Source: a virus
Reading direction: 5' to 3' (one strand)
DNA length: 64,000 nt
IMG/VR virus record: IMGVR_UViG_3300023199_000051
Coordinates: 64,001-128,000 of that record
The first letter of the stretch is position 1. The number at the start of each line of letters is the position of its first letter. A model generated the notes under the pieces. That model was not told the DNA's origin and did no database searches. It worked only from the letters and a program-made list of their open reading frames with translations. Position numbers and translations under genes: made by a program. This document shows, in pieces, positions 10,735-47,740 of the stretch.

Positions 10735-10752
10735 TCCCAGGAGTCTACTCCT

Positions 10753-11259
10753 ATGCTGCCCTTCTACAGGGTGATCGTCGCCCCTCGTTTCCTGGGACTG
10801 CTCTCCGAGCTGGCCCCGATCAGCATCGGCAACATCACCATCTGGCCTTTCGTCATCGTCCGCGACTCCATGGGAGAAGTTGAGGAGCGGCATGAAGCCA
10901 TCCACGTCCTCCAGCAGGGAGAGTGTGCCGTGCTGGTTGTCCTGGCTTTGCTCGCCGCAGCTGCCCTGACCACCCCCCTGCTCCTGTTCCTGCTCCCCTT
11001 CCTGCTGCCTGCCGGATGGCCGCTGTACGCGCCGCTGTACTACAGCTCCTACGCCATTGCATGGCTGTGGTACTCGAAGTCATGGAAGACGCGAGCTGCA
11101 GACCTCCAGAACCGCTGGGGCCTACGGCGCAAGCCCAACACCCGCGGCAAGGTGGCCTACCTGTCCATCCCCTTCGAGCAAGAGGCGTATGCCAACGAGG
11201 ACAGCAAGTCCTACCTCGACAAACGCCCCCTGCTTGCCTGGGTGCGATTCTCTGTCTAG
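10753..11259 (+). CDS. Small membrane protein with HExxH...E (gluzincin-like) motif
   Basis: HEAIHVLQQ, hydrophobic stretch, IPFEQEAYANE; 168 aa. Confidence 0.7.
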   Translation: MLPFYRVIVAPRFLGLLSELAPISIGNITIWPFVIVRDSMGEVEERHEAIHVLQQGECAVLVVLALLAAAALTTPLLLFLLPFLLPAGWPLYAPLYYSSYAIAWLWYSKSWKTRAADLQNRWGLRRKPNTRGKVAYLSIPFEQEAYANEDSKSYLDKRPLLAWVRFSV

Positions 11260-25362: not shown

Positions 25363-26793
25363 CTACTCGATGGTGATCATGCTGGCGATGTCAGCCAGCG
25401 ACAGCGCGCCTCCAGCTGGCTGCGCAGCCCCTGCCGGTGCGGGAGGTGGCTTGGGCTTGCGCGACTTGCGCTTCGACTTCGGCCGCCGCGACCTTCGCGT
25501 CGACTTGCGCTTCGACTTCCTGCGCGTTGGCTTCGGAGGTGGTTCTTCTTCGGCCACTTCGACCGCCTTCATGGCTCGGTTGAACACGCCCCTGACCTTG
25601 CTGGTCAGCCTGGCCTTCGACATGGACCGCTTGAGAGCGCCGCGACCGCGACCGCTCTTGCTGCCCAGGTAGGCGGCAGCCTTCGTCTCGTTCTTGCCGC
25701 CATCGGTGGCATCGAGGTAGGCCTGCACGGCCGGCGTGTGCTTCTTCGTCTTGCGCGTCTTCGTCTTGCGCTTCTTCGTCTTGCGCTTCTTCGTCTTGCG
25801 CTTCTTCTTCGGCGGCTCTGGTGCGGCCTCGGCCTTCTTGAAGAGCGCCTTGAGCTTGTTGTGCTCCGTGCGCTTGAGCCGCGCTGCAGCCGATCGCTTG
25901 AGCGCTGTGATGCGAGCACCGGAGAGCTTGGCCACGTAGGCCTCTGCTGTGCCTCGGATGACGGCGTTGAGGTACTTCCCCAGCGCTGTCTTCTTCCCTG
26001 GCTCCTTGCCCTTCTTCGTGAACGGCGTGTACTTGTTGGCCTTCTTCGCCTTGGACTTCTTGGCCTGGCGCTTCGTCTTGCGCTTCTTCGCCTTCTTGCC
26101 CGCAGCCTTCTTCACACGGGCCAGCACTTGCGCTTCGGTGCGCTGCTTGCGCGCGACACCCTTGGGCTTCTCGTAGACGGGCGGAAAGCTGCCCAGCCGC
26201 TTGGCACCACGGCCGTTGCCGACAATGAGGCCTGCGACGACCTCGAAGTCCTTGGACGTAGCGACGTACTTCTTTCCGACACGGACGCCGATCTTCGTCA
26301 GCTCCAGGGCGCCGTTACGGGCCTTGAGTCCGACCCTGTTGTTCTTGATGGCGGTCAGCAGGTCCGCCCAGCTGTTGCGGGCCGTGAGAGCCCGGAGACG
26401 CTTCTTGGCGCTCTTGCCTCCAGCAGCTGCCTTGCCTCGGACGATGGTGCCGTTGGCCTTCTTGATGTAGCCGCGCGGCAGCTCACGACACCGCGGGCCC
26501 AGCAGGCCAGACTTCGGTTCGATGTCGATCGAATCCATCGATCCGTCGAGGGCGTAGACGGCTCGGTCGCCACCACCTGTCTGATCGGTGAAGGTAGCAT
26601 CGACGATGAAGCCGGCCTCGTGGGCAGTCTGGATGTCCTCCTTGAGGACCTTCTGCGCCTCGCCCTTCTTGAGGAAGGTGACCTCGTTGGTCTCCTTCCC
26701 CAGCTCCGAGGTGAGCCGCCACTTCCAGCGCTTCTTGCCCTTGTACTGCCCCCGGTAAGGGGAGAGGGTGAGGATGATCTTGCGAGCAGCCAT
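25363..26793 (-). CDS. Lys/Arg-rich histone-H1-like basic protein A
   Basis: 476 aa; KKRKTKKRKTKKRKT repeats; GGAGACACCAC-ATG start context. Confidence 0.85.
   Translation of the reverse strand: MAARKIILTLSPYRGQYKGKKRWKWRLTSELGKETNEVTFLKKGEAQKVLKEDIQTAHEAGFIVDATFTDQTGGGDRAVYALDGSMDSIDIEPKSGLLGPRCRELPRGYIKKANGTIVRGKAAAGGKSAKKRLRALTARNSWADLLTAIKNNRVGLKARNGALELTKIGVRVGKKYVATSKDFEVVAGLIVGNGRGAKRLGSFPPVYEKPKGVARKQRTEAQVLARVKKAAGKKAKKRKTKRQAKKSKAKKANKYTPFTKKGKEPGKKTALGKYLNAVIRGTAEAYVAKLSGARITALKRSAAARLKRTEHNKLKALFKKAEAAPEPPKKKRKTKKRKTKKRKTKTRKTKKHTPAVQAYLDATDGGKNETKAAAYLGSKSGRGRGALKRSMSKARLTSKVRGVFNRAMKAVEVAEEEPPPKPTRRKSKRKSTRRSRRPKSKRKSRKPKPPPAPAGAAQPAGGALSLADIASMITIE
25741..25807. repeat. 15-bp tandem repeat (about 4.5 units) encoding KKRKT
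   Basis: (C[T/G]TCTTCGTCTTGCG)n. Confidence 0.9.
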
Positions 26794-26872
26794 GTGGTGT
26801 CTCCGGTTGAGAGGTGGCCAAGGGGCGTAGAGGAGAGGGGACTCGGTACGAACGCCGAGTCCCTACGCCTCC

Positions 26873-27886
26873 CTACCGAGGCATCGGCAGCTTCTTCGCT
26901 CCGGTCTTGGTCCTGGCCTTCTTCTTCTGCGCGTCGGAGAACTTGCCCCACTTCTTCTTCGCCTTCGTCATGGCGACCTTGTGGGACACGCCCTTCTTCG
27001 CCTTGACAGCCGCCACGTAGTTGTTCCACTGCTTGAGGGCAGGTGGCAGCTTGCGCTTGCCGCTCTTCTTCTTCTTGCGGCTCTTGCTCTTGCTCTTGCC
27101 AGTCAGGCTCGGCAGCGATGTCTTGGACGAGCGGCGCTTCGTTGTCTTGCGCTTGCGGGTCGACTTGCGCTTCGAGGAGCCCTTGACCATGCTTCCGGCT
27201 GCCTTGGCAGCCTTGATGGTCGTGATCTTGCCTCCCTTCTTCGCCCGCTTCCAGGTCGCGCTGACTTGCTTCCGGGTGGCTCCCTTGGCGTACGCTGCCT
27301 TGGAGAAGGCGGCGTAGCGCTTCTGGCCTGCGCTGCGCCCGCTGCGCTTGCTGCTCGACTTGCGCTTCGAGGTCTTCTTCTTGCTGCTCGACTTGCGCTT
27401 CGAGGTCTTCTTCTTCGGCAGGAGGCTCGACGCGGCGCCCTTGCCGCTCTTGTACTTCGCGTACTTCTTGCCGGCCTGCTTCTGGGTGTAGCCGCGCTTG
27501 GCCGCCATGGACCAGAACTTCGGCCACGACATCTTGCGCCCGCTGCCGCTGGTCTTCTTCTTGGACTTGCGCTTGCTGGACTTGCGCTTGCTGGACTTGC
27601 GCTTGCTCTTCGGGATCGACAGCGCCTCCGTCGTTGGCGCGCATCCCTTGACGGGTGTGTACTTGGTCTTGCTGACCACGTTGCCCTTCGCGTCCTTGAT
27701 GACAGCGGTGACGATGTAGTTCTCCGCCAGGAAGAGCTTGATGGACTTGGTCAGCTCGCGCTGGCACGACTTCTGGGACTTGCAGATCTGGGCTTCGTAT
27801 CCCGACCGAATCTCGTAGCCGGTCCGGCTGCCCTTGCTGTTGAATCGTGGGCCAGCGTAGATGGTGGCGGACTTGCGACGGGCCAT
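26873..27886 (-). CDS. Lys/Arg/Ser-rich histone-H1-like basic protein B
   Basis: 337 aa; KRKSS repeats (15-bp x3 at 27563-27607, 33-bp x2 at 27347-27412); GGAGGCACCAC-ATG. Confidence 0.85.
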   Translation of the reverse strand: MARRKSATIYAGPRFNSKGSRTGYEIRSGYEAQICKSQKSCQRELTKSIKLFLAENYIVTAVIKDAKGNVVSKTKYTPVKGCAPTTEALSIPKSKRKSSKRKSSKRKSKKKTSGSGRKMSWPKFWSMAAKRGYTQKQAGKKYAKYKSGKGAASSLLPKKKTSKRKSSSKKKTSKRKSSSKRSGRSAGQKRYAAFSKAAYAKGATRKQVSATWKRAKKGGKITTIKAAKAAGSMVKGSSKRKSTRKRKTTKRRSSKTSLPSLTGKSKSKSRKKKKSGKRKLPPALKQWNNYVAAVKAKKGVSHKVAMTKAKKKWGKFSDAQKKKARTKTGAKKLPMPR

Positions 27887-27927
27887 GTGGTGCCTCCGGC
27901 ATCAGAAACAGAGTAGTAGGTGCCGGA

Positions 27928-27956
27928 AGCATAGCGTGGGCACTGAGCCAAAGCAA
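27928..27956 (-). promoter_or_regulatory. sigma70-type promoter for the basic-protein genes
   Basis: TTGCTT-17 nt-TATGCT. Confidence 0.6.
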
Positions 27957-27964
27957 GCGATAAG

Positions 27965-28001
27965 CCGCGTAGTATGCGCCTTTTGGGCTCATACTACGCG
28001 G
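27965..28001 (-). terminator. Hairpin after 28021..28896
   Basis: CCGCGTAGTATG...CATACTACGCGG perfect 12-bp stem. Confidence 0.6.
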
Positions 28002-28020
28002 TGCACAATGCACCTTGCCT

Positions 28021-28896
28021 CTACCTCTGGGTGAGGTCCTGGAACACCTTGTGCGCCTCGCGGATGACGTGCGCGACGGCTGCTCCAAGCTGCTCAGGCG
28101 GCGCCTCTACCTGGGAGAGGATGTCCGGCTCGGGGTCCTCTTCGTCTCCAGCCAGGATCACTGCGACGCGGTAGCCGCCGTTGGTCTCCAAGGTGATGCC
28201 GATGTCCACGCCGGGCACAGCTTCTTGCGCAGCGGCGTGCAGATCGAGCCCCAGCTCGTCGAGAGCGCTGCCGAGATCACCCCCTTGCTGCGGAGCGCCG
28301 CCCGGCTGCGGTTGGCCCATGCGCTGAGGCTGAGCGCCCAGCTGAGGCGGACGCCCGGCAGCACCTTGCGGAGCTGCAGGCGTTCCCCCCTTACGCATCA
28401 TGGCACCCAGCATCCCCATCGGGTTGCCACTGCCGCCCATGCCACCCATCATACTCATCATGTTGGCACCTGGACCGCCCCCCGGACTGCCGCCTGGAGC
28501 GGGACCGGGCATACCACCTGGGGCACGACCGGGCATGCCGCTCATCTGCGGCGACGGCGCAGCAGAGGGGGTCCCTACTGGGATCGGCCGGCCTGCACCC
28601 GCGTCGAGGGGAGGCCCCACGAAGGGGAGGCCCGAGCTACCTGCAGCTGGGGGTGCCTGCGGTGGGGCCTGATGCCCATGCTGCTGGGGCGCAGTTACTT
28701 GCGGATGGACGTGAGGTGGCAACTTCGGTGCACCTTGCTGCGGTGCACCTGTGACTGCCTCACCGAGGATCGCGCCCACCTGTGCGAAGTCCACATCCTC
28801 GCCGCGGGCCATCTTGCCCAGCTGGTCGAGCAATGCTCCGCTGTTGGCGCCGATTCTCTCGGCGTTCGATTGACTGAGTTCTGGAAGGTCGGACAT
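28021..28896 (-). CDS. Pro/Gly/Gln/Met-rich low-complexity protein
   Basis: 291 aa; folded-looking termini around a PGGAPG/MMGGMGG linker. Confidence 0.75.
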   Translation of the reverse strand: MSDLPELSQSNAERIGANSGALLDQLGKMARGEDVDFAQVGAILGEAVTGAPQQGAPKLPPHVHPQVTAPQQHGHQAPPQAPPAAGSSGLPFVGPPLDAGAGRPIPVGTPSAAPSPQMSGMPGRAPGGMPGPAPGGSPGGGPGANMMSMMGGMGGSGNPMGMLGAMMRKGGTPAAPQGAAGRPPQLGAQPQRMGQPQPGGAPQQGGDLGSALDELGLDLHAAAQEAVPGVDIGITLETNGGYRVAVILAGDEEDPEPDILSQVEAPPEQLGAAVAHVIREAHKVFQDLTQR

Positions 28897-28931
28897 CGGA
28901 TACCTCTCAATGAGGGTTCAAGACAGGCCCG

Positions 28932-29183
28932 CTACTCGGGCTCGATGATGGAGAACACGTTGACTGGCGGGGTTCCACGCTGAGGGCGCTCTTCGCTCTC
29001 CAGCAACCCCTCGTCGACCAGCGTCCGGCAGATTCGCCGGACGTAGCTTTCCTCCATTCCCAGCTCGGCAGCCATCGCGCCAGCGCTGGGAATGAGTAGC
29101 TTCTCGGATCGGAGCAGGTTTGCGATGCGTACGCCGGTGACGACGCCAGATCGCCTGGTTCGTTTCTTTCGGCCTTGGGCCAT
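28932..29183 (-). CDS. Small winged helix-turn-helix protein
   Basis: PSAGAMAAELGMEESYVRRICRTLVDEGLL; AAGAGG SD before ATG 29183. Confidence 0.7.
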   Translation of the reverse strand: MAQGRKKRTRRSGVVTGVRIANLLRSEKLLIPSAGAMAAELGMEESYVRRICRTLVDEGLLESEERPQRGTPPVNVFSIIEPE

Positions 29184-29199
29184 GAACACCCTCTTCGCT

Positions 29200-29919
29200 T
29201 CAACGGTTCGTGAAGATGTCCCCTACTTCCTGCATGATCTTGGCGGCGCGTCCCACGGCGTCTCTGGCGTCGGTGATGACGTCAGACCATGGAAGCTCTG
29301 GAGTGTTCGTGTTGGTGTCTGGCTCGGTGATGTTTTGCACCACGTCGCGAGTGTACTCTACCCGATTCCGGGTGTTTTGCACCCGTTGTCCTAGAGGTTG
29401 AAGGACCTCCAAGGCCGCATCCGCAACTTCTAGCAGGTCGTCAGCTTTGGCTGGGACGCAGTTACTAGCAGCTTCATCGCTGAGCAGAAGGACAGCAGCA
29501 GCCTCATCAAGCTCTCGCTCCGTGTCAGGATCTTCACGATCCTCATTGCGGCGATCTAGCATCAGGAGTGACAGCGAGCGGGCAAACCGGAGCGAGCTGA
29601 CACGCTGTAGGTACTGGTGCCCAGTGAACGAGGAGCGTGGGAGCAGCTCGGGGCGCCTCCCGAGACGACGCAGCAGGTACCGCCACTGCCGTACCAGGCC
29701 AGCTTGTGGCCCCCCGGCCTGCGATGCGATGGTCGTGTCCAGTGCGAGCAGAGCTGCGGTGTAGTCGTCCTTGAGATCAGGACCACCTGCCTCATCCCAC
29801 AGCTCCTGCGCGACTCGGATTCGATCCGACCAGTCAACGAACCCCGCTTCTTCAGCTTTCCGAGCGGTGAGCGTGAAGGCATACCGGATCTTCATGTTGA
29901 GGCCGGGCTCGTAGCTCAC
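29200..29919 (-). CDS. Hypothetical helical protein (239 aa)
   Basis: Long co-oriented ORF, tight spacing to neighbours. Confidence 0.7.
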   Translation of the reverse strand: MSYEPGLNMKIRYAFTLTARKAEEAGFVDWSDRIRVAQELWDEAGGPDLKDDYTAALLALDTTIASQAGGPQAGLVRQWRYLLRRLGRRPELLPRSSFTGHQYLQRVSSLRFARSLSLLMLDRRNEDREDPDTERELDEAAAVLLLSDEAASNCVPAKADDLLEVADAALEVLQPLGQRVQNTRNRVEYTRDVVQNITEPDTNTNTPELPWSDVITDARDAVGRAAKIMQEVGDIFTNR

Positions 29920-29931
29920 TGGTGCTCCTAT

Positions 29932-31347
29932 CTACAGGTGCACCTGGTAGCCATCACTGTCGATGAACACTGCTCCTGCTTCGTCGGTAGGATCATCGTA
30001 GTCCATCGCGTACTCGGCATCCTCCTCGATGACCATGTTGTCGTTGCCGTCGAAGCCCTGGACGATGATCGACTCGCCCGGCTTGATGGCAGTCTTGAAG
30101 GGGCCTTCCTTGAGGCGCTTGCGGAGCTTGATCATCTTGGCGACACCAGAGCCAGCCTTGACGGCTAGTGGAATGAGGGCGCCTGATGCATCCTCCTCGA
30201 CCGGGTCGAGCTTCCAGGCAGGCTCCTCAGCGGTCCCCACGTTGGTCACCTTGACCGGGTACCCTCGCTTGACACGCAGCTCGACAGCTGGCGCAAGCTC
30301 CTGCGTGACCCAGGGCTTGCGGAACAGCTTGACGAGCCCTTCCCCGACGCCCCCCGAGTCCTTGATCTTCTCCCCGAGCTTCTGGAACATCTTGCCCTTG
30401 AACAGGCCCTTGCGCTCACTCGTGTTCTTGCTCTGCCGCTTGGACTTCTTCCGAAAGAGGCGCTTGAGGAAGCCGACTGCCTCTTCGTCTTCAGCATCTG
30501 CTGCGATGTAGCCCTCATCGTCAACGTCCAGTCCTCCGATGACGCCGTCCACATAGGTCTCCGGCAGCGTGCCATCCTCTAGGCCCTCGGTGACCAGGTA
30601 CTCCAGCTCTTCGGGTGTGATGGCACCTGCGCGGAACAGAGGCTTGCGATGTTCCTTCTTCCAACCGCGCCACTGCCGACGCAGGCCCTTCCTCTTCTGC
30701 CTGCTCTTGCGCCTCTTCCGTGCCTTGCGGCGCTTCTTACGGAGCCTCTTCCCGCGCCGCTGGAGACGCTTGATCTTCTTGGGCTTGCCGGGCTTGCGTG
30801 CTGGTCTCTGCATGGCACCGCCGCCGCGCGTGGGCCTCTGCATGGCAGCGTCACCACCGCGTGTAGGCCGCTGCATGGCACCATCCATGGAGCGCCGCTG
30901 CTTGAGCTTCTTCGGTTGGTTGGCGCTACGGGACGGCCTCTGCATGGCACCGTCCAGGGATCGCCTCTGGTCGAGCTTCCTCGGGCCCCTCCTACCACGC
31001 GGGGAGTGCGGGCCATCGAGGTGCCTCCCACCGAGGCGCTTGCCGCCAAACCGCCGTCGCTGAGGCCGCTGCATCGCACCACCGTCACGAGGGTCCCTCG
31101 GCACCTCGTAGGTCTCCCAGGCATACTGCTGCTCGCCTGGGATCACCTCTTCGATGATCTCCTCCTCGACGTACTGCGGCTGCCGTGGCTGCGAAGGGTA
31201 GAAGAAGGAAGATCTAGCAGCTGGCTTCGGCTTCGGAGCACATCCATGGAGCTTGCCCGTCTTCAGGAGGCAGTCTCGCTCGGCTTGCGTCTTGGCACGA
31301 GCCAGCATGGCAGGGTTGACTTGGCCGATGGTGATGCGGTCGCTCAT
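29932..31347 (-). CDS. Acidic/basic segmented protein with (G/A)AMQRPxR repeats
   Basis: Start MSDRITIG at 31347; five AMQRP units; K/R block; EDEEAVG-FLKRLFRKK. Confidence 0.8.
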   Translation of the reverse strand: MSDRITIGQVNPAMLARAKTQAERDCLLKTGKLHGCAPKPKPAARSSFFYPSQPRQPQYVEEEIIEEVIPGEQQYAWETYEVPRDPRDGGAMQRPQRRRFGGKRLGGRHLDGPHSPRGRRGPRKLDQRRSLDGAMQRPSRSANQPKKLKQRRSMDGAMQRPTRGGDAAMQRPTRGGGAMQRPARKPGKPKKIKRLQRRGKRLRKKRRKARKRRKSRQKRKGLRRQWRGWKKEHRKPLFRAGAITPEELEYLVTEGLEDGTLPETYVDGVIGGLDVDDEGYIAADAEDEEAVGFLKRLFRKKSKRQSKNTSERKGLFKGKMFQKLGEKIKDSGGVGEGLVKLFRKPWVTQELAPAVELRVKRGYPVKVTNVGTAEEPAWKLDPVEEDASGALIPLAVKAGSGVAKMIKLRKRLKEGPFKTAIKPGESIIVQGFDGNDNMVIEEDAEYAMDYDDPTDEAGAVFIDSDGYQVHL

Positions 31348-31402
31348 GGTGTGGTGCTCTCGGATCGTGGTGTGCGGGCAGGGGTGAGCTGCCATCTACA
31401 AC

Positions 31403-31780
31403 CTAGCATCCACAACCGTTCGTGCCGAATCCATCAGCGAAGCCGCCCCGGTTGGCGTAGCGCCAGCCGTGGCGCCAGGTCCGGTAGAGCGGACCACCTG
31501 GTAGGTAAGGTCGGCGGGTGTGGTGAGGTTGCTCATATGCGACGTAGTGGTTGGAGGGGACATTGACAGGCAGCTTCATCCCCAGGATCTGCGCTGGGTT
31601 CGATCGCTTCACGTACACAGGCACGCTGAGGTGCCTGGTGAGCATGATCCCCTCACCCGGCTCGGGGTCGGTGAGGTACACCACCAACCGCTGCCTTCCG
31701 ATGCCCACAGCTGTGAGGCGCGGGTCATCGGCATAGGCCTCGATGAGCAGGTCACGGGCGTCGGCAAGTGTGCGGCTCAT
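31403..31780 (-). CDS. Hypothetical protein (125 aa)
   Basis: DPRLTAVGIG..LVVYL; coupled to neighbours. Confidence 0.7.
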   Translation of the reverse strand: MSRTLADARDLLIEAYADDPRLTAVGIGRQRLVVYLTDPEPGEGIMLTRHLSVPVYVKRSNPAQILGMKLPVNVPSNHYVAYEQPHHTRRPYLPGGPLYRTWRHGWRYANRGGFADGFGTNGCGC

Positions 31781-32334
31781 CCCGAGAAGTCTCCGAAGGC
31801 ACCACGAAAAGCGAAAGTGTTGCGGGGTGCCCCGAAGGGTGTTCGTGGGGGCAGGTAGTCCGGCGGGAAGTCAGTGTAGGCGTGACGCTGGCCGCTGCGC
31901 CATGGGACAGCTCGTGTCTGAGGCTCATGGAGCTTCTTGTTGAGGAAGCCGCTGATACGAGGCTTTCTGTTGATGCCGAAGTAGGGCATTAGCGCAGGCC
32001 GGTAGGGGCCGCCCTCAGGCTCTGGCTCGTTGTATGGCTTGCTGGCCCAGGGAGGCACCATGAAGGCGGGGACGGGCACCTGCGGAGCGAACTTGGTAGG
32101 CGCCAAGCCTTCCCCACGCGTCCCATGCGTCCATGCCAGCCGCACCCTGCGGCCCAGCACCGGATCAGTGGCGCTGATGGGGGCCTTGCGGAGCCACACG
32201 GGGACGTAGCTTCGGATCTTGTCCTGGTAGGTCCGCACCCCACCAGGGTCACGGGACTCACCAGCCCGTAGCGCCTTGGCAAACAAGCGGTACTGGTGGA
32301 TGGGGATGGAGTTGACCCACCCGACAACACTCAC
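31777..32334 (-). CDS. Hypothetical Pro-rich protein (185 aa)
   Basis: GTGA overlap with 32331 stop gives start MSVVGWVNS. Confidence 0.7.
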   Translation of the reverse strand: MSVVGWVNSIPIHQYRLFAKALRAGESRDPGGVRTYQDKIRSYVPVWLRKAPISATDPVLGRRVRLAWTHGTRGEGLAPTKFAPQVPVPAFMVPPWASKPYNEPEPEGGPYRPALMPYFGINRKPRISGFLNKKLHEPQTRAVPWRSGQRHAYTDFPPDYLPPRTPFGAPRNTFAFRGAFGDFSG

Positions 32335-32618
32335 CGTAGCCCCCACTTCCAAGGACGCACCTGCTGCACGGCCTGCTTGCGCACGACCATGAAGCCTCTG
32401 AAGGTCAAGGGGAGTGAGGCATGGCTGACTCCCTTGACATAGACGATGAGGCACGGTCCGGTGAACATGGCATTGCGCCGGCCGTGGTTGCTGCGCTCTG
32501 CGATCACCTTGACGACGCCAGGGTACTTCGACCGCAAGCGCCCGTGGAGCACTTGAGCTGCCTGCCGTGCCTTCCTCAGCTCGATGTCAGGCATCGAGAA
32601 GGTCATGCCTGGAAACAT
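32331..32618 (-). CDS. Hypothetical protein (95 aa)
   Basis: GAGGT SD; KYPGV..CLIVYV..LP..F.G. Confidence 0.7.
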   Translation of the reverse strand: MFPGMTFSMPDIELRKARQAAQVLHGRLRSKYPGVVKVIAERSNHGRRNAMFTGPCLIVYVKGVSHASLPLTFRGFMVVRKQAVQQVRPWKWGLR

Positions 32619-32660
32619 CGGTACCTCCTATGAACACCTAGTGGAGAGAGGAGGAAGCAA

Positions 32661-33101
32661 TCACGCCCAATAGGGCGATGGCTCGATGCTGGTGAAGCCC
32701 TGCTGGGAGAGCACGTCCTCGGCCACCTGTGGGTTGCCTGTGAACATGACGCCGAGCCTGTCGGGGCCGCTGGCAAGCGCCACCTGGACACCAGCCCCCC
32801 GTGCTGCCATCTCGGCCTTGCTAGCCTTGCCCCACACATCGTTGTGGGTGTCGGGGGGGAACACGACCAGTGCGTGCTCTCCCTCCAGGATCTCGGTCTG
32901 GACAGACGGGACGCCTGCTCGCTTCATGTCGCCTGCGTAGCGGGCAGCTGCGGCACGGGCCGAGCCGAGCGCGCCGACGCCGTCGACCTTGGGGGACGCG
33001 GGGACACCCCCCCGGAACGAGTCGAGCCAGGACAGGCCCGCAATAGCGGCGACTCCGGTGAGGGCAAGGACGACGCCTTGCTCGGTGTTGGTCTTGAACA
33101 T
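32661..33101 (-). CDS. N-terminally membrane-anchored protein (146 aa)
   Basis: CTGGAG SD before ATG 33101; GVVLALTGVAAIAGLSWL. Confidence 0.75.
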   Translation of the reverse strand: MFKTNTEQGVVLALTGVAAIAGLSWLDSFRGGVPASPKVDGVGALGSARAAAARYAGDMKRAGVPSVQTEILEGEHALVVFPPDTHNDVWGKASKAEMAARGAGVQVALASGPDRLGVMFTGNPQVAEDVLSQQGFTSIEPSPYWA

Positions 33102-33120
33102 GGTGAACTCCAGTTGTTGT

Positions 33121-34071
33121 CTACAGGGCGCGGCCCTGAGCACGTCTCTTCTTTGCGTAGTTGAGGTACCAGTCTGGGACGGGCATCCCCAAGCGTACCG
33201 ATGGATCATCGTACACGGGGGCATCGAACTTCGGCCCTCCGAGGTACCCGTCGACACGAACGAGGGCATGGAACAGTCGTCCGCCCTTCTTGCCACCTGC
33301 GAACTGTTCGGGCTTCTCGATGGGGCGCGTGTCCACATGCGCATCGAATCCCTGCAGCATCAGCTCCCCAGCGCGGTAGGCTGCCAAGCCTTCGCAGTCA
33401 TCCTGACCCTGCGACAGGATCTCCTCAGCGTCCCACCACTTCTCGGGGGTGCCTTCTGTGCTGTACTTGACGTTGGTCTTGTACAGCGGAGGGAGCCCCT
33501 GGGTCTCGATACGCCTGGCGTTGTGGCGTGCGATGGCGTCTCCGATCTCCCGAACCGGGAGCGCCTTGTCATCGTCGAGGGACAGGTACATGTACTCGGT
33601 CACGCGGCCCTTGGTCGGCTGCGTGGTTGCACCGACTACGCCAGGACGGTAGTCGGCAGGCCGCCCGAACTGCACAGACGGATCGTCGAGCACGACCGAT
33701 GGGCTGCGCGCTGAGCCACCTACGATGGTGGCCACCTGAGGGACACCACTGACCAGTGCAACGACTGCCTTGGCGCCCTTGGCTCGCTCCTCGGCCGCCC
33801 TCCACGCAGCCAAGGTGCCCGCTGAGGCCTTCCCCGTGCGAAGAGCGGTGAGTGAATCACGCCACACAGGCGCTTCATCATAGGCGAGCGAGACGTCGTC
33901 CAGGTTCGGGACCTTTCCTTCTTGGATGGAACGAACGTTGCGGGTGATGAGCCCGTTCATCACGTCTGCGAGTGCTTTCTCCCCCCCGTGCAGGGTGAGG
34001 AGCACACGCATGCGCCCTGCCTTCTGCGGAAGGGGAGGGAGTGTTCCGATGATGTCTGCTGGATTGGCCAC
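33121..34071 (-). CDS. Transglutaminase-fold cysteine protease (active C-terminal domain plus degenerate N-terminal copy)
   Basis: GQDDCEGLAAYRA (Cys), LFHALV (His), YDDPS (Asp). Confidence 0.75.
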   Translation of the reverse strand: MANPADIIGTLPPLPQKAGRMRVLLTLHGGEKALADVMNGLITRNVRSIQEGKVPNLDDVSLAYDEAPVWRDSLTALRTGKASAGTLAAWRAAEERAKGAKAVVALVSGVPQVATIVGGSARSPSVVLDDPSVQFGRPADYRPGVVGATTQPTKGRVTEYMYLSLDDDKALPVREIGDAIARHNARRIETQGLPPLYKTNVKYSTEGTPEKWWDAEEILSQGQDDCEGLAAYRAGELMLQGFDAHVDTRPIEKPEQFAGGKKGGRLFHALVRVDGYLGGPKFDAPVYDDPSVRLGMPVPDWYLNYAKKRRAQGRAL

Positions 34072-34077
34072 CGCGAT

Positions 34078-34761
34078 CTACCCCTTCACGGCGCCGCCAC
34101 CAAGGGCGCCAATGATGTGACCGCCGGGGTTGTCGTAGGCGAAGCCACGACGACTCTGGCCGGGGAGGCCGCTGCGGAGCAAGCCGCTGTCATAGGGTGC
34201 TGCACCCCACTCGGCCTGTCCAGGGCCAGCAGGGGCCTCCCAGGCCATCGGGCGCTCCTCGTCGAGGTCGGCCGGGTCAAGGCCCAGGTGTGCCAGTTCG
34301 GCATCCAGCTCGCTCTCCAGGTAGTCGAGGTCGTCGTCGCTGAAGTTGTTCTCGGGATCGCTGAAGCGGTGACCGCCGAAGCCCGGAACGCCGAAGGAAC
34401 CGACACCTGCCATGTGGGCGTAGCCGGCCTCGGCATCATCCAGCTCGGCCTCGAAGTCGTCCAGCTCTTCATCGCTCATGTCGCTGAACATGCCGGAGTC
34501 AATGCCGCCTCCACCACCGAGCAGCTCGGCGATGCCTCCACCAAAAGATGGACCGAACAGCGGCAGCCTCACCTTGCCTTCTTCGGGGGCCTCGATGCGC
34601 TTGGCTGCCTTCTCGGCCGTGCTCGTGATGCGGCTGCCGAAGGCCTTGCCAAGGCGTCCGAAGGCGCGGCCGAATGCGCGCTTCTTCTTGCGCTTCTTCT
34701 TGCTCTTCTCCTCTGGCTCCTTGGCGGCGCCGATGAGGCCCATGTGGATAGGGATGTGCAT
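34078..34761 (-). CDS. Basic-N/acidic-C protein, putative virion core or scaffold
   Basis: CAGGAG SD; KSKKKRKKKRAFGRAFGR followed by two SD(D/E)(E/D)LD..E.ELD acidic repeats. Confidence 0.75.
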   Translation of the reverse strand: MHIPIHMGLIGAAKEPEEKSKKKRKKKRAFGRAFGRLGKAFGSRITSTAEKAAKRIEAPEEGKVRLPLFGPSFGGGIAELLGGGGGIDSGMFSDMSDEELDDFEAELDDAEAGYAHMAGVGSFGVPGFGGHRFSDPENNFSDDDLDYLESELDAELAHLGLDPADLDEERPMAWEAPAGPGQAEWGAAPYDSGLLRSGLPGQSRRGFAYDNPGGHIIGALGGGAVKG

Positions 34762-34788
34762 GTCGATCTCCTGGGGGTGAGTAGTGGC

Positions 34789-35535
34789 CTACCCGGTGCA
34801 CTCGTAGAGGACGATGTGGGTCTGGGGGGCGGCCCCAGTGGGACTGAGTGTGTAGTCCAGGTTCGGGATCCGCTTGATCTCCCCCGAACGTGGGACAGTG
34901 AGGACTTCATCGTATGCGACGACGCCGCCTGGCCCATAGCCTCGGATGCGAGGTGGCGGCGAGCCAGCTCCTGGGCTGAACACCTCGAAGGTGTCGCAGA
35001 AGGGAGGCACCGACAGATCGGTCTCCCCGGTAAGTGCATCGACGCCGCCAAAGAACTGCTGGTCCTTCCAGTCCGAGAGGCCTGCTGTGAACTCATCGAT
35101 CTGGTAGTGGGCTTCCAGCTCGAAGTTGTTGGGATTGAGCGCCAGTACGCGGATGCTGCGACCTGGTGCGTAGATGACGGCTGACTGGTTCGTGGTCGTG
35201 AAGCATCGGCGTACGATGCGCTCGTTCTCCATCTTCGCGAGCACAGTGAAGCGCAGTCCCGCACCCGATCGAGTGGGGTCATTGCCTTCCGGGTCCTGAC
35301 AGCTGAGTGTGACCTTCCAGCGGCGGATGATGTTGATCTCGCCGTTGTCGACCAGGACGACAGGGTCCACGAGCCCTGATCCGGGAGGAGAAGCAGCAAA
35401 CCCAGCACGTGCAGGGACAGCCTTGAAGTCTCCGATGCGGTAGCCACGGCCCATGGCCGGATCCCATCGGGAGTAGGGCTGCAGACCACCGTGCTCGATC
35501 TCGTTGACCAGTCGTCGGTCTTCACGGCTGTGCAC
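34789..35535 (-). CDS. Beta-rich protein, candidate minor capsid/penton
   Basis: Alternating beta-strand pattern, VPPFCDTFEV; start uncertain (35535 GTG or 35454 ATG). Confidence 0.6.
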   Translation of the reverse strand: MHSREDRRLVNEIEHGGLQPYSRWDPAMGRGYRIGDFKAVPARAGFAASPPGSGLVDPVVLVDNGEINIIRRWKVTLSCQDPEGNDPTRSGAGLRFTVLAKMENERIVRRCFTTTNQSAVIYAPGRSIRVLALNPNNFELEAHYQIDEFTAGLSDWKDQQFFGGVDALTGETDLSVPPFCDTFEVFSPGAGSPPPRIRGYGPGGVVAYDEVLTVPRSGEIKRIPNLDYTLSPTGAAPQTHIVLYECTG

Positions 35536-35759
35536 GGAGGCGCTTCTACCTGCACGACTACGGTGACTCAAAACGCACCTCGGCCCCTGGGACCCCGTGG
35601 TGAAGTGGGAACCAAGTCCCCACGTCACGGGGCCGCAGGGGCCAGGCGTGCGCACCGATCGGTGCGCACAGTGTGACAGCGGAAGCTATCACGGTAGCGC
35701 CGTAGCTACGGGGCAGCGGTTGCTACCCCACAGGCGTAACCCTCGGTAGAGGGCCGCGC

Positions 35760-36476
35760 CTAGTAGCCGTAGCCGGGAGCCGAGAAGCCCTGCGTCGCGG
35801 CGGTCAGGAGCATGTGCTCCATCCAGCGCTGCATCGCGTAGGGGTTCAGCTCGTCGGCGATGATGCCGCCGCTGACCGTCCGCGGGGCACCCGTGGCGAT
35901 GTTCGCCAGGTTGACCCGGAAGGTCTGGCCGGTCAGCGCGAGACGCCGCCCGAACGAGATCCCGAAGCGGGTGCTGTCGCTGGCGAACATCGACAAGGGG
36001 GTTCCCTTCGAACCCACGTTGACCGGCAAGCCGGCGACCGTGATGCCCGTCACGAGAACTTCGGCGGGGACGTCGGCGTCGAGCACCAGGCTCTTCCCCC
36101 ACAGGTTCCGGTTGATGGTGTCGTCGATGTAGCCAGTCGACGAGGCTGGGATCTCGACACTGCCGAGGCCGTTGTACTGGTTCTCCTGGATCATCCCGGC
36201 CGCGGCTGCGGCCTGGTAGACGTCTGCGGGTGCTGCTCCTTGATTGGGCATCGGTTCCTCCTGGGGGGGTGGTGCGAGGCGGGCCTGACGGCGCTCCAGA
36301 CGGTCGATCTTGCGAGAGGTGCGGCGGAGCCGCGCCTTCTTGCCGAACGGCCACAGGAGACCAGACTCGTCTTCTTCGTCGTCGTAGTCCATCTCTTCCA
36401 CGTCGGCGGGGTCCACGTAGACCTCGCCGGTCGCTTCGTCGAGCTTCACGGGGACTGCGCCAATGACAGTGGACAT
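35760..36476 (-). CDS. Candidate single-jelly-roll capsid protein with acidic/basic N-terminal extension
   Basis: About 110-aa all-beta-looking core GLGSVEIPASSTGYI..LVL..VLVTGITVAG..PLSMF..GQTFRVNLANI..RTVSGGIIAD; long leader with GGAG SD and a cUUCGg hairpin at 36559-36574. Confidence 0.6.
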   Translation of the reverse strand: MSTVIGAVPVKLDEATGEVYVDPADVEEMDYDDEEDESGLLWPFGKKARLRRTSRKIDRLERRQARLAPPPQEEPMPNQGAAPADVYQAAAAAGMIQENQYNGLGSVEIPASSTGYIDDTINRNLWGKSLVLDADVPAEVLVTGITVAGLPVNVGSKGTPLSMFASDSTRFGISFGRRLALTGQTFRVNLANIATGAPRTVSGGIIADELNPYAMQRWMEHMLLTAATQGFSAPGYGY

Positions 36477-36653
36477 GGAAAACTCCGGTTTTCTTGAGTG
36501 GTGCTGGGTGGTGGTGTGCGCTGATTCGCCAGAGCGGCGTCTCAGGGCGCCCTGCTTCGAGCCCCGAAGGGCTCTCGGCGGGGTGTCAGCGGCTCAAAGG
36601 CTGCTGAACGTGTGGTGAACTGGTGAAAGATCTTGCCCTTGCGGGCAGCTGCT

Positions 36654-37328
36654 CTACAGAGCGAGCTGACGGCGGTAGCGGGGTCGGACGGCGTACAGGG
36701 GGACCTGGACCATCTGGGGCTCCTGCTGGGCGTCGTCGTACCCGAGCTTGTGCTGGAGGCGTCCGCGACGGCTGCGCAGGCGGGACAGCTTGCGCCCGAT
36801 GCGCTGGATGCGCTGGCGACGGCCGAACAGGCCTGACTCGTCCTCCTCCTCCTCATCGTCGTAGTCCTCGTCGAGGGCGCCGAGCACGACACCCTGGGAG
36901 GTGGCTGCGCTGGCAGCCGGGGCGCTCTCGCCCTTCTCGCCCCACTTGGCGCCCATCTCGTAGCTGTACTCGTGGACCCAGGAGCCCAGGGTACCGAGGG
37001 AGACGTTCACCGCGTGGCTCGACCACTTGGACTTCGGCCACCAGAGACCGGCGACCAGGCCGGCGACACCGGTGACGATCCGCGCGTCGGTCTTGATGAC
37101 GGGGATCTTGAGGTCCTTGCCCTGCGCTGCTCGCCATGCGGACGCACCGGACCAGACGGCGCCGGAGCCGAGCAGCTCGCCTGCGACGACTGCGCTCTCC
37201 TTGGCGGCCTTGGTGCGCGCCTTGGCGACGGTGGACCGCGACCGCGATCGGCCGCTGGACTTGCGCTTGCGCTTGCTCTTGCGCTTGCGAGGGCGAGCCT
37301 TGGATGCAGATGGTGGGGTGATGGCCAT
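36654..37328 (-). CDS. Basic membrane protein (Arg/Lys/Ser N-terminus, hydrophobic hairpin, acidic-then-basic C-terminus)
   Basis: GGAGG SD; RKRKSKRKRKSSGRSRSRS; IVTGVAGLVAGLWW; DEEEEDESG-LFGRRQRIQR. Confidence 0.8.
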   Translation of the reverse strand: MAITPPSASKARPRKRKSKRKRKSSGRSRSRSTVAKARTKAAKESAVVAGELLGSGAVWSGASAWRAAQGKDLKIPVIKTDARIVTGVAGLVAGLWWPKSKWSSHAVNVSLGTLGSWVHEYSYEMGAKWGEKGESAPAASAATSQGVVLGALDEDYDDEEEEDESGLFGRRQRIQRIGRKLSRLRSRRGRLQHKLGYDDAQQEPQMVQVPLYAVRPRYRRQLAL

Positions 37329-37357
37329 GGAAGCGACCTCCGTGTTTCGATGCCTAA

Positions 37358-37386
37358 AGCGTATCGAAGGGTGACAGGTTGTGCAA
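37358..37386 (-). promoter_or_regulatory. sigma70-type promoter heading the putative capsid operon
   Basis: TTGCAC-17 nt-TACGCT. Confidence 0.6.
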
Positions 37387-37650
37387 GCAGGAAAAAGAAG
37401 TTTCCAGGCCCACTATGGGCCTTATGTGCCCCTACTCACAAGTAGGTCCGGCGAAAGTGCCGGGAGACCCTATATGGGCCAGTTGATGTCGAACCCCTTG
37501 CCGAACCGTGGGAGGCCCGTTCGGGATCCTGAACGCCATGGTTCGTCTGGACGCCGAAGCATCGACGAGAGGGCGTATGAAGCTCTGGACTGCTGCAGGA
37601 TTGGCCGCGGGTATGCGAGTCCTTCCTGGAGCATGCGGTCGAGGGGTCGC

Positions 37651-39585
37651 TCAAAGCGCCCTCCGCGACACCGCGCCGAGGTTGTCCTGGAACGCCCCCG
37701 TGTCGGCGTGAGAAGCAGGATCAGCATCTGAGTAGCCTCCGGTCTGGACGCCCATCAGGCGAGGGCCATAGCTGGAAGGGGCGCCGAAGCTCTGCGAGCT
37801 TCCGTAGCTCTGCGGGCTTCCGTAGCCGCTCTGCCCGTACCGGGCCTCGGCCTCGCGGGCCTTGTGCTGAGCGGTGATGGCCTGCAAGAAGGCCACCGTC
37901 TTTGCCTGCTGTCCCAGGTTGGGATCATAGGAGGGTTGCCGTTCCCGGATGATGGTTCGGCGGATGACCTGAGGCCGGCCTCGACCGATGGGAATGCGGC
38001 GACGCCTGCGCACCATGCGACGACGCCTGCGCGCCATGCGGGTAGGCGGCCTCGACGAGCGCACTGCTGGGGGAGGAGCTACACGCCGCGGACGCCTGGG
38101 CTTGCCCTGGGCCTTTGCGAGCAGGCCTCGGATCTGGCGGGCGAGGGTCTGCAGGCGTGCCTTCTTCTTGATGCGGCGCACTCTCTGCAGCTTGCGCTCG
38201 ATGCGGTCGAGTGCCTTCTCCAGCTTGCCCACGAGCTTGGGCTTGATGCGTCCCTTGCGGCGGAGCTGGCGCTCGGCACGCTTGATCATCTTGCCGGGAC
38301 CGAACAGGGTGATGGCCCGTCCGCCCCGCGGTGCCGATGCCTCTTCACCTGCACGGTCGAGCAGCGACTTGATCTGTGCTGCCAGACGCTGCATCTTCTG
38401 ACGCTTCTTCGGCCGGCGGGCGTTCTTGGCCTTGAAGGACACCCGGCCGTAGATGCGCTGGATGCGCGCAAGCAGCTTGGGCTTGATGCGTCCCTTGCGA
38501 CGGAGCTGGCGCTCGGCACGCCGGAGGGCCTTCTTCTTGTTGGGAGCCAGGAGGGCGAGGACCCCACCGCCGAGGAGGAAAGGAAGGATGCCGATCTCGT
38601 CGAGGTCGTCGTCGCCCTCGTAGGTGTAGCCCATCTCTTCGAGCCTGGCCTTGAGACGGCGGATGCGCTTGAGCATGCGGCCGATACGGCGCCTGATGCT
38701 GCGTGCACGCTTGGCCGGTGTCCGCTTGAACAGCCTGCCCAGCTTCTTGAACAGCCCGACCGTGTCGTCGTAGCCAGCCGTGGAGACATCGGGGTCGTCG
38801 TCGGGGATCGTGACTGCGACACCAGCCGGGTCGTCGGTGAAGTAGAAGAGGTACCAGCCACCCTTCGAGGGCTCGACCCGGTAGAAGGTGTTGCGGTTGC
38901 GCGCGATCTTGCGAGCCTTCAGCGCGGCCTCGATGCGGTCGTTCTCGCTGGGGAGGTGAAGCATCCATCCATCACCGGTTGCTTCGCCGGCCGCGGCCCA
39001 GTGCTTGCCGACCGGGATGCGGCTGTCTGCAGCCCACTTCGCGAGGGTGCCCGACGACTTGACGACGGCCTTGCCTTGCTTGCTCCCCCTGATGACGGCC
39101 TTCCTGCCGATGGCGAGCTTCGGCTTCTTGATCCTGATCTTGGGGAGCTTGAGCTTGAACTTGCCGACTTCGTGCTCCACCATCGCGCCGACCAGGATGG
39201 GGTTGCCATCAGCGGAGAAGCCAGCATCGCGGGCAGCCGCAGTCTGGTAGCTGTGCGGCTCCCAAGCTGAACCACCCCAGTTGGGGCCTTCCCACGGATC
39301 CTGAGCGGGCGCATCGTCACCGAACCCTGCCATGACCGGATTTCCATCTCGGGAAGACGCACGGCTCTCTGCAGCGTTGGACAGGACGTTCGGTTCCCAG
39401 GCCGAGCCGGCCCAGATGGGATCCGACCAAGGGTCAGAGAAGACGGCACCGCTCATGTCGTAGTCGGCGTCGTCGAAGGCGCCCACCATGAGCCCTCCGC
39501 TCTCTACGTCCGGCTCCGTCTTGCGGAGTACGTGCTTCTTGTGAGCAGGGGCAGGGCACTTCGGGGTCTTTTCGTGGGTCGCCAA
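37651..39585 (-). CDS. Modular acidic/Arg-rich protein, candidate core polyprotein
   Basis: GGAGG before TTG; duplicated DPW..W(A/G)GSAWEP..DGNP unit and duplicated RAERQLRRKGRIKPKL unit. Confidence 0.85.
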   Translation of the reverse strand: MATHEKTPKCPAPAHKKHVLRKTEPDVESGGLMVGAFDDADYDMSGAVFSDPWSDPIWAGSAWEPNVLSNAAESRASSRDGNPVMAGFGDDAPAQDPWEGPNWGGSAWEPHSYQTAAARDAGFSADGNPILVGAMVEHEVGKFKLKLPKIRIKKPKLAIGRKAVIRGSKQGKAVVKSSGTLAKWAADSRIPVGKHWAAAGEATGDGWMLHLPSENDRIEAALKARKIARNRNTFYRVEPSKGGWYLFYFTDDPAGVAVTIPDDDPDVSTAGYDDTVGLFKKLGRLFKRTPAKRARSIRRRIGRMLKRIRRLKARLEEMGYTYEGDDDLDEIGILPFLLGGGVLALLAPNKKKALRRAERQLRRKGRIKPKLLARIQRIYGRVSFKAKNARRPKKRQKMQRLAAQIKSLLDRAGEEASAPRGGRAITLFGPGKMIKRAERQLRRKGRIKPKLVGKLEKALDRIERKLQRVRRIKKKARLQTLARQIRGLLAKAQGKPRRPRRVAPPPAVRSSRPPTRMARRRRRMVRRRRRIPIGRGRPQVIRRTIIRERQPSYDPNLGQQAKTVAFLQAITAQHKAREAEARYGQSGYGSPQSYGSSQSFGAPSSYGPRLMGVQTGGYSDADPASHADTGAFQDNLGAVSRRAL

Positions 39586-47218: not shown

Positions 47219-47740
47219 CTACTTCTTCGACTTCGACTGCAGCTTCTCGATGATCTTCATCAGGAGCATGCCGCCAGCTACCCCGGCCACGAGCACGACG
47301 AGGATCATGAGGCCGGAGCCCTTGAGGGTCGACACGACACGCTTGAGCTTGGTCTCGGCGGCCGGCGACAAGTCGACTTCATGCTTGAGGATCGCACCGC
47401 TGCGAGGTTCCTGGTAGCCGCCGATCTGAGTCTGCGAACCGGCACCCTGGCTGATAGGAACCAGCGCGTACCCAGGTGGAATGGCAGGAGGTTCGCTCTG
47501 AGGGGAGAAGAATACCTGCTCGGCACGGTCTTGCGACTGCGGCGGGAAGCGCCACGTCTGCCCCGAGTAGGCGAGGTGGCTTCCAGAGGAGGCGCCAGGG
47601 ACGTTGTCGAGTACACGACCGCCGTAGGTGTGACCTTGCCCGGTGATGGGGCCCCTGCGCAGCCTCCTCCGTCCCGAGGGCCGACGCCGTAGTCGGCGGA
47701 TACGGCCCAAGACGACCCGATCGCTGCGTCGTTGCGTCAC
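47219..47740 (-). CDS. Membrane protein with Arg-rich N-terminus and C-terminal TM
   Basis: AGGAG SD; VVLG-RIRRLRRR; GLMILVVLVAGVAGGMLLM. Confidence 0.8.
   Translation of the reverse strand: MTQRRSDRVVLGRIRRLRRRPSGRRRLRRGPITGQGHTYGGRVLDNVPGASSGSHLAYSGQTWRFPPQSQDRAEQVFFSPQSEPPAIPPGYALVPISQGAGSQTQIGGYQEPRSGAILKHEVDLSPAAETKLKRVVSTLKGSGLMILVVLVAGVAGGMLLMKIIEKLQSKSKK

Follow-up and report, generated by a model that had tools for sequence, protein, structure and literature searches.

A block of minus-strand genes in an uncultured bacterial virus carries a conserved four-gene module, in which a transglutaminase-fold enzyme with the catalytic residues Cys-His-Asp is encoded beside candidate particle proteins that share a glycine motif. 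The enzyme may cut these proteins at the glycine motifs during maturation of the particle, a reading that comparative sequence analysis makes plausible and that is favored here tentatively, somewhat short of calling it probable. Cutting would remove acidic spacers or short N-terminal leaders and would free basic segments that bind membrane or DNA. The motif, its conservation, the shared module, the catalytic triad and the gene linkage are shown here, whereas the cutting, its exact bond and the masking of basic parts by acidic ones are inferred. The part of the block considered here lies at 25.3-39.6 kb, within a long minus-strand run, of a stretch of 64,000 nucleotides (the window) that comprises bases 64001-128000 of the IMG/VR record IMGVR_UViG_3300023199_000051 (locus G000:C1:64001-128000). 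All feature positions below are counted in the window, and an arrow within a motif marks a known or presumed cut.

The four-gene module and its enzyme

The module consists of a basic membrane protein, a jelly-roll protein (protein A), a beta-rich protein (protein B) and the transglutaminase-fold Cys-His-Asp enzyme. The gene order is kept in five related loci (L009, L011, L013, L014 and L015), where a large modular protein is followed by the basic membrane protein, protein A, protein B and, further downstream, the enzyme. The module is also syntenic in two distant elements, L022 and L023, with a membrane protein, a homologue of protein A and a homologue of protein B just upstream of the enzyme (profile E-values in L022 and L023, respectively: 1.8e-11 and 6.7e-15 for A, 3e-8 and 3.9e-13 for B, 7.7e-42 and 1.5e-38 for the enzyme). 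There it stands on unrelated contigs with a guanine and cytosine (GC) content of ~70% (L022:5371-8747 and L023:823-4249), and the enzyme has a single domain. Its presence in these elements indicates that the four-gene module is much older and wider than the 178-kb virus. L022 also encodes an integrase, an HTH_36 replication protein and an M23 peptidase, which suggests that small integrating elements share the particle module with the large virus. Cell-wall hydrolases of the SLT, M23 and M15 types are found near the module in relatives, separate from the enzyme, and thus the enzyme need not be a lysin. Searches of GenBank phages by tblastn with protein A and the enzyme gave no match, pattern scans of IMG/VR with single proteins returned no relatives, and an alignment of protein A (A3) found the protein in none of the GTDB species genomes and in only one further contig of IMG/VR. 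The JGI samples 3300037493, 3300045347 and 3300036770 contain close relatives with high coverage. Even if no cutting takes place, the four-gene module could be used as a marker to find the lineage.

The source virus is 178,164 bp long, has direct terminal repeats and is rated complete in IMG/VR; its GC content is 62-66% throughout. Nearly all genes between genome bases ~54,000 and 106,000 are on the minus strand. The ~20 minus-strand genes at 25.3-42 kb of the window matched no Pfam or PHROG family, whereas outside the block the genome has replication and modification genes of the phage type, among them those for a DNA polymerase, a primase, helicases, methyltransferases, HNH and LAGLIDADG endonucleases, inteins, an integrase and a thymidylate synthase. 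The PHROG and Pfam matches listed for the ~170 proteins screened (one PHROG listing covered 25 of 46 families) included no terminase, portal or HK97-type capsid, and direct profile searches with PF03237, PF03354, PF05065 and PF04860 (Terminase_6N, TerL_ATPase, Phage_capsid, Phage_portal) gave no match at E-values up to 0.1. A Walker-A scan of the genome, made without a packaging-ATPase profile, revealed no small packaging ATPase either within the block or close to it; its only matches were an AAA+ protein, helicases and a Sak4-like protein, all outside the block. PHROG matches to 'tail fiber' and 'minor tail' were not taken as a tail since they span only C-terminal domains of ~100 residues, and a 'baseplate hub' match, not traced to a gene, was not taken as tail evidence either. 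The virus is thus a bacterial virus without detected tailed-phage genes; its particle type cannot be read from known hallmark genes, and the block is the only candidate for a structural module. The initial annotation of this DNA had treated the block as particle genes, and this is borne out by the conserved module, by the lack of tailed-phage hallmarks and by the jelly-roll model of one of the two best-conserved proteins. Most likely, the genes on the minus strand at 25.3-42 kb specify the particle proteins of a bacterial virus lineage that has not yet been described and that has no terminase, portal or HK97 capsid gene.

The enzyme itself (33121..34071, minus strand) is predicted to be a tandem transglutaminase-fold protein of 316 residues and is a candidate processing protease, characterized through its homologues, their alignment and an AlphaFold2 (AF2) model. 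In the model (mean predicted local distance difference test score, pLDDT, 90.8), two similar domains are joined by a coil; the N-terminal domain lacks catalytic residues, and the C-terminal domain holds Cys226, His268 and Asp289. Residues D225, C226, H268 and D289 are invariant in 31 enzyme sequences. Among its 312 homologues, many consist of a single domain of 110-260 residues. In line with the Cys protease of the initial annotation, a Cys-His-Asp enzyme is conserved alongside the block proteins, and it is the only conserved candidate protease. Its fold matches are nearly all transglutaminase-fold proteins, although at weak scores (Foldseek E 2.3e-3, VIA Z 4.3-4.5): the C-terminal domain weakly matches TgpA, PeiW/PeiP, LapG, TglA, BDI_1141, 3isr and putative cysteine proteases. 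When the enzyme model was compared with BFVD, no clear match emerged. Pfam gave no match above threshold for the window protein, and recognizes neither a signal peptide nor a wall-binding domain in it. The small homologues score 18-21 bits against Pfam Transglut_core, for which the cut-off is 23 bits, and among the orthologues, one matches Peptidase_C93 (E 0.0096) and one Transglut_core (E 0.07).

Kinship with adenain, vaccinia I7 and pS273R of African swine fever virus (ASFV), to which the initial annotation had likened the system, is not supported. The transglutaminase fold and the order Cys-His-Asp place the enzyme outside clan CE, to which these three proteases belong, so that any likeness is convergent; profiles PF00770 (C5) and PF02902 (C48) gave no match in the 178-kb genome at E-values up to 0.1, in a search that did not include C57 and C63. 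A prediction of the complex between the enzyme and residues 1-95 of protein A scored 0.00; it was run without controls and speaks neither for nor against binding. The enzyme carries the glycine motif as well: GVVGA (residues 144-148; 33628..33642, minus strand) lies in the linker between its domains, within the coil that the model places between residues 135 and 155. About two thirds of the enzyme orthologues have hydrophobic-hydrophobic-G-x at the linker position, and several have a hydrophobic-Gly motif at the N-terminus.

Glycine motifs in the candidate particle proteins

The initial annotation had listed 12 peptides in which an acidic stretch, x-Gly, a hydrophobic residue and a basic or membrane segment follow each other. 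All 12 are present in the genes named, and junctions of the acidic-xG-hydrophobic-basic type proved to be conserved and partly homologous. Conservation held for Gly39 of protein A, for two glycines in the membrane/basic family and for TVG↓LFKK of the 644-residue protein; it could not be shown for DDAEAG-YAH, YDSG-LLR, ATSG-ALA and DYDMSG-AVF, the last of which lies in an insertion relative to L014. The motif thus recurs in several candidate particle proteins and is conserved there, and this conservation is stronger evidence than the enrichment discussed below.

Protein A (35760..36476, minus strand; 238 residues) is a candidate capsid protein with an N-terminal arm and a jelly-roll core at residues 93-210. 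It has 43 metagenome homologues, some on contigs of 37-163 kb. Along the arm, VIGAVP precedes a beta-hairpin, after which an acidic stretch leads through ESG↓LL into a basic helix. The junction DEEDESG↓LLWPFGKKARLRR (residues 33-52; 36321..36380, minus strand) was defined from the alignment and the AF2 model. Gly39 of DEEDESG↓LL is at least 90% conserved in 27 homologues (alignment A3), whereas its acidic surroundings vary in number and kind, and the distant proteins of L022 and L023 retain acidic residues, [IV]G, Ala and then basic residues. In the AF2 model, built from the 27 homologues (mean pLDDT 77.8), residues 93-210 form an eight-stranded jelly roll, which is preceded by a short hairpin, by an acidic loop without order at residues 30-42 and by a long helix at residues 43-67; the region of Gly39 has a pLDDT below 50 and lies directly ahead of this helix. 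The predicted fold is a jelly roll, and it is reasonable to infer from the model, but only to infer, that the protein is a capsid protein: in an exhaustive structural comparison, its best matches include the capsid jelly rolls of PBCV-1, Faustovirus, STIV, HHIV-2, HCIV-1 and PM2 with VIA Z 6.3-8.1 (7.3-8.1 for the first five), scores that GOLD, CBM and furin P domains equal. Foldseek returned only weak jelly-roll rows from the PDB, and profile searches of PDB sequences with alignments A3 and A4 gave no match. In one distant homologue of protein A (P0041, L016:2861-3715), the arm IGTVPLRVDKTGQVYVD stands after the jelly roll rather than before it, which looks like a circular permutation of the module. 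A protein on a 1.2-kb JGI contig (P0043), of which the first 110 residues match A and the remainder matches PF09950 without aligning, is probably an assembly chimera and was not used.

Protein B (34789..35655, minus strand) is beta-rich and may be a second capsid protein; its N-terminus varies and is followed by a conserved GRGYRIG-x4-VP. Its orthologues in five loci are 39-53% identical, and distant homologues occur in L022 and L023. The Atlas model of protein B is of low confidence and resembles beta-sandwiches.

The basic membrane protein of the module (36654..37328, minus strand; 224 residues) has a basic N-terminus, a hydrophobic middle and the sequence VVLG↓AL-acidic-DESG↓LFGRR, followed by a basic helix. 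In an eight-row alignment of this membrane/basic family (A6), G150 and G169 are the only invariant columns; these are the glycines of VVLG and LFG on either side of the acidic insert, which varies in length. Two orthologues without the insert read VVG↓R-basic directly, as excision of the spacer would leave. The large modular protein (37651..39585, minus strand; 644 residues) carries LMVG↓AF, ILVG↓AM-EHEVG↓KF, YDDTVG↓LFKK with a basic helix, and DLDEIG↓ILPF with a hydrophobic segment. TVG↓LFKK has positional counterparts in four of the five orthologous proteins read, and a hydrophobic-Gly motif near the N-terminus is positionally conserved in the family. A hidden Markov model (HMM) of the first 70 residues of protein A matches the membrane/basic proteins of this genome (E 7.6e-7) and of L015 (E 1e-8), as well as those of L014 and L011, and the arm HMM matches the TVG↓LFKK region of the 644-residue protein (E 0.008). 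The three best sites (genes 35760, 36654 and 37651) are therefore copies of one homologous module, which consists of an acidic stretch, x-Gly, Leu/Phe and a basic helix.

A wider layout recurs around this module, in which a hydrophobic-Gly motif and a second x-Gly flank an acidic spacer that varies in length, with Leu/Phe and a cationic amphipathic helix after the second glycine. It is found in protein A and in the 224-, 487- and 644-residue proteins, and also in L014, L015 and P0057; as judged from the sequences, proteins with this layout look like precursors from which an acidic spacer could be excised. The glycine-motif peptides of the candidate substrates include DEEDESGLLWPF, STVIGAVPV, QGVVLGALDED and SLDGAMQRPS. 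The 487-residue protein (29932..31395, minus strand) combines five x-G-A-M-Q-R-P units with VIG↓GL-acidic-EAVG↓FLKRLFRKK and EEDASG↓ALI. The five units are in tandem at 30802-31086 (minus strand) and separate short Arg/Lys-rich peptides; these repeats could represent small core peptides joined in a chain, or they could offer a cross-linker its glutamine donor sites. The C-terminal part of the protein has homologues in L015 and L013.

The Gly- and acid-rich protein of 227 residues (34078..34761, minus strand), which starts MHIPIHMGLIG↓AAKEPEE and continues with a Lys run, has no sequence homologue in the related loci. Outside the block, a tail-anchored protein of 173 residues (47219..47740, minus strand) starts MTQRRSDRVVLG↓RIRRLRRR; a start of the form M-x(0-6)-[RVIL]-[IVL]-G is common to this protein and to many small membrane proteins of L011, L014 and L024. 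The clearest N-terminal glycine tag in a relative is found at L011:13526-16676, where four paralogous membrane proteins in a row each start M-x-x-x-[IV]-[IV]-[VIL]-G-R-[VI]. Two Lys/Arg-rich, histone-H1-like proteins of 476 and 337 residues (25363..27886, minus strand) have long tails of K/R/T repeats but no clear Gly module; presumably, they are core proteins that condense DNA. A protein with a similar KTRKTRK tail is encoded at L024:18811-20211 on a related IMG/VR contig.

Alternative explanations of the glycine motifs

Several observations weigh against the proposal that the enzyme cuts at the glycine motifs. Cleavage products have not been seen in any form. The acidic-xG-basic-helix stretch is homologous in three proteins and could have been conserved for binding and not for cutting, and the IGxVP arm of protein A, which the model shows as structured and which is C-terminal in P0041, argues for a docking element. 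Transglutaminase-fold enzymes also serve as cross-linkers and as cell-wall peptidases, and the fold matches of both the enzyme and protein A, the latter not specific to capsids, are too weak to exclude a common arrangement. An alternative has a substantial chance of being correct, even if we would not call it likely: the shared stretch would stay uncut and serve in assembly or anchoring, and the enzyme would cross-link particle proteins (Gln-Lys) or cut cell-wall peptides at entry. The basic helices of protein A, the membrane/basic protein and the 644-residue protein would then bundle, or lie on an internal membrane or on DNA, with the acidic part as a flexible linker and the glycines as helix caps or hinges. 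Besides the homology of the stretch among the three proteins, the hairpin and long helix of the A arm are predicted with good confidence, the phage cell-wall isopeptidases PeiW and PeiP are among the best fold matches of the enzyme, the block proteins are rich in Lys and Gln, including the GAMQRP repeats, as would suit a cross-linker, and the L011 orthologue of the 644-residue protein has a peptidoglycan-binding domain. However, the glycines are the sole invariant columns of the eight-row alignment while flanks and spacer length vary, which a hinge rarely needs, and many unrelated small membrane proteins have the motif within a few residues of their N-terminus. Nor does cell-wall cutting fit well with the wall hydrolases that relatives encode near the module in addition to the enzyme, or with an enzyme that has no Pfam-recognized signal peptide or wall-binding domain. 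It is improbable that the glycine motifs are cut by a host protease or by another viral one, with the transglutaminase-fold protein unrelated to cutting. There is precedent in the staphylococcal phage 80alpha, where the N-termini of capsid and scaffold are trimmed by the host enzyme Prp, and the leaders M-x(0-6)-[RVIL]-[IVL]-G resemble peptides handled by cellular enzymes. The window also encodes a second small protein with a PHROG 'protease' match (PHROG 15610; 10753-11259, plus strand), but it lies on the opposite strand beside a GHKL ATPase, outside the module, and was rejected as the maturation protease for this reason; the transglutaminase-fold gene, by contrast, stays linked to the tagged proteins across distant elements.

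The motifs might instead reflect composition and chance, since glycine makes up ~10% of residues and low-complexity alternation of acidic and basic stretches yields xG junctions. This reading is already unlikely, and the counts bear on it in both directions. The initial annotation had proposed to test for enrichment of the motif in the block over the genes at 42.7-64 kb, and by this measure enrichment fails or is marginal at best. The loose motif (at least two D/E among the six residues that precede [VILSAT]G, followed by a hydrophobic residue or K) has 22 matches in the 5206 residues of the block, or 4.2 per 1000 residues versus 2.9 elsewhere in the genome and 3.4 for the genes at 42.7-64 kb, an excess of 1.2-1.45 fold that is not significant and that counts against the proposal of cutting. 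The generic [VILSAT]G[LIVFM] is unenriched (9.8 versus 8.8 per 1000 residues). The strict motif, with at least three acidic residues before and at least two basic residues after, has five matches (0.96 versus 0.22 per 1000 residues genome-wide, 4.4 fold, p=0.013), and against the 42.7-64 kb genes it too is not significant (p=0.25). A sharper motif, [VILM]-x-G-[AG]-[VILMF] upstream of acidic stretches, was seen while the orthologues were being read (VIGAV, MVGAF, LVGAM, VLGAL, VIGGL and L/M-DGAM are examples) and was thus defined after the data had been seen, which lessens the weight of its counts: 13 were observed in the block versus 4.5 in shuffles (0/200 shuffles reach 13). The blocks of relatives have 38 versus 22.7 in shuffles (0/200), where the shuffles ignore local composition and membrane segments could inflate the counts. 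As a control, 46 thousand residues of other proteins of the genome have 38 versus 41, with no excess; p is 0.0014 for the block and 1e-4 for the relatives against this control. A tighter form gave 8 versus 1.1 in the block, 17 versus 5.9 in relatives and 12 versus 12.1 in the control. Hydrophobic-hydrophobic-Gly in the first 20 residues (17% and 14% versus 8%) was too weak because start codons are uncertain, and it was not used. Chance is opposed not only by the lack of excess in control proteins of the same genome but also by positions that are conserved in homologues down to ~25% identity and by the profile search, in which the modules are homologous.

Relation to known maturation systems

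If the enzyme does cut at the glycine motifs, the nearest parallels, by analogy, would be the adenovirus precursors cut by adenain and the double-glycine leaders cut by C39 peptidases. Adenain (MEROPS C5) recognizes the sites (M/I/L)-X-G-G↓X and (M/I/L)-X-G-X↓G in pVI, pVII, pVIII, pX and pTP; vaccinia I7 cuts AG↓X, and ASFV pS273R cuts GG↓X. As in the adenain system, a gene for a cysteine enzyme accompanies the particle genes of what would be a jelly-roll virus. The motif likewise has a hydrophobic residue at P4 and a small Gly/Ala near the presumed cut, it recurs in many particle proteins, and the candidate substrates are predicted to be basic core or membrane-active proteins. The two systems differ in that adenain belongs to clan CE with the order His-Asp-Cys, whereas the enzyme described here is of the transglutaminase/papain type with Cys-His-Asp and gave no C5/C48 match, and in that the host is a bacterium. 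The double-glycine leaders of class II bacteriocins are cut by papain-like C39 peptidase domains, which are fused to ABC exporters and act during secretion, and the peptide is inactive until the Cys-His peptidase has cut the leader. These leaders share with the viral proteins an acidic stretch that has G-[GAS] at its end and a hydrophobic position at -4 and that is followed by a cationic amphipathic peptide, a likeness of motif alone. In the bacteriocin leaders, positions -7 and -12 are hydrophobic as well. In the virus, however, the motif belongs to a particle module, the leader is often internal and no exporter is linked.

Other known systems resemble the module in part. The enzyme appears to share the minimal transglutaminase-fold Cys-His-Asp core of the bacterial cysteine proteinase LapG (Peptidase_C93) and of the phage pseudomurein endoisopeptidases PeiW/PeiP, with marginal sequence similarity (E 0.0096, one orthologue). 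LapG is periplasmic and calcium-dependent and cuts at a small-residue (Ala-Ala) motif; PeiW and PeiP differ from the role proposed here in that they cut the cell wall and not virus proteins. The Helvetiavirae (P23-77, SH1, HHIV-2 and HCIV-1), which have an inner membrane and two vertical single-jelly-roll capsid proteins, likewise have two adjacent small beta-rich genes beside membrane-protein genes, and chains of HHIV-2 and HCIV-1 are among the fold matches of protein A (Z 7.3-7.6, within matches that are not specific). In contrast to these viruses of 16-31 kb, the virus analyzed here has 178 kb and no FtsK/HerA-type packaging ATPase in the Walker-A scan. We know of no maturation protease described for Helvetiavirae-type viruses.

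The initial annotation was too broad in stating that proteolytic maturation of this kind had not been described for phages, since the prohead proteases of T4 (gp21) and of phiKZ/SPN3US cut head and ejection proteins (PMC10052503). T4 gp21 cuts after L/I-x-E, whereas for SPN3US gp245 and phiKZ gp175 the cut follows A-x-E and the propeptides removed are 20-254 residues long; the substrates of these enzymes carry propeptides and capsid-targeting sequences (PMC10052503). The likeness to the system proposed here is that one protease would act on many head and internal proteins through a short motif, with propeptides that serve targeting or assembly. The prohead proteases differ in being serine enzymes of HK97-fold tailed phages that cut after Glu, and no HK97 capsid, portal or terminase was found in the present genome. 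Motif-directed maturation is thus well known in tailed phages, and the general idea is not new for phages. If cutting holds, new features would be the transglutaminase-fold cysteine enzyme, the glycine-based motif and a bacterial virus of the jelly-roll and not the HK97 type. No description of a transglutaminase-like phage maturation protease, or of proteolytic processing in tailless membrane phages, was found in the literature searched. To our knowledge, motif-directed maturation of core and membrane proteins has so far been known from adenoviruses, poxviruses and ASFV, and from tailed phages. If the cuts are real, it would extend to bacterial jelly-roll viruses by way of a third unrelated protease fold, and a simple sequence rule would predict the mature particle proteins in a large virus group that current tools barely recognize.

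A broader proposal, rather unlikely in its entirety, is that a single lineage extends from small integrating elements to viruses of 178 kb and combines two jelly-roll capsid proteins, histone-like cores and no recognizable terminase or packaging ATPase. Its transglutaminase-fold protease would cut at hydrophobic-x-Gly-[Ala/Gly], excise acidic spacers and release cationic peptides that bind membrane or DNA. If true, this would be an independently arisen bacterial counterpart of the core maturation of adenoviruses, poxviruses and ASFV.

Some other genes of the window deserve mention. A giant gene at 17436-24989 (minus strand) encodes a protein of 2517 residues with an Eco57I-type methyltransferase, an SNF2 helicase and an intein with a LAGLIDADG domain; giant genes like it adjoin the module in relatives (2239 residues in L012 and 1728 residues on the contig of P0197), and the protein may be a packaged anti-restriction protein like DarB of P1. 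A second intein-bearing gene, at 49660-52860 (plus strand), encodes an SNF2-type helicase that is split by an HNH-domain intein. At 7663-11259 (plus strand), a pair of plus-strand genes interrupts a minus-strand run and encodes a protein of 1023 residues with a weak match to GHKL ATPases and the PHROG 15610 protein of 168 residues; the two could form a defense or counter-defense pair. A protein encoded at 54556-55623 (plus strand) has four MopE-type metal-binding motifs and may hint at the host, as this family is one that we take to occur mostly in Myxococcota.

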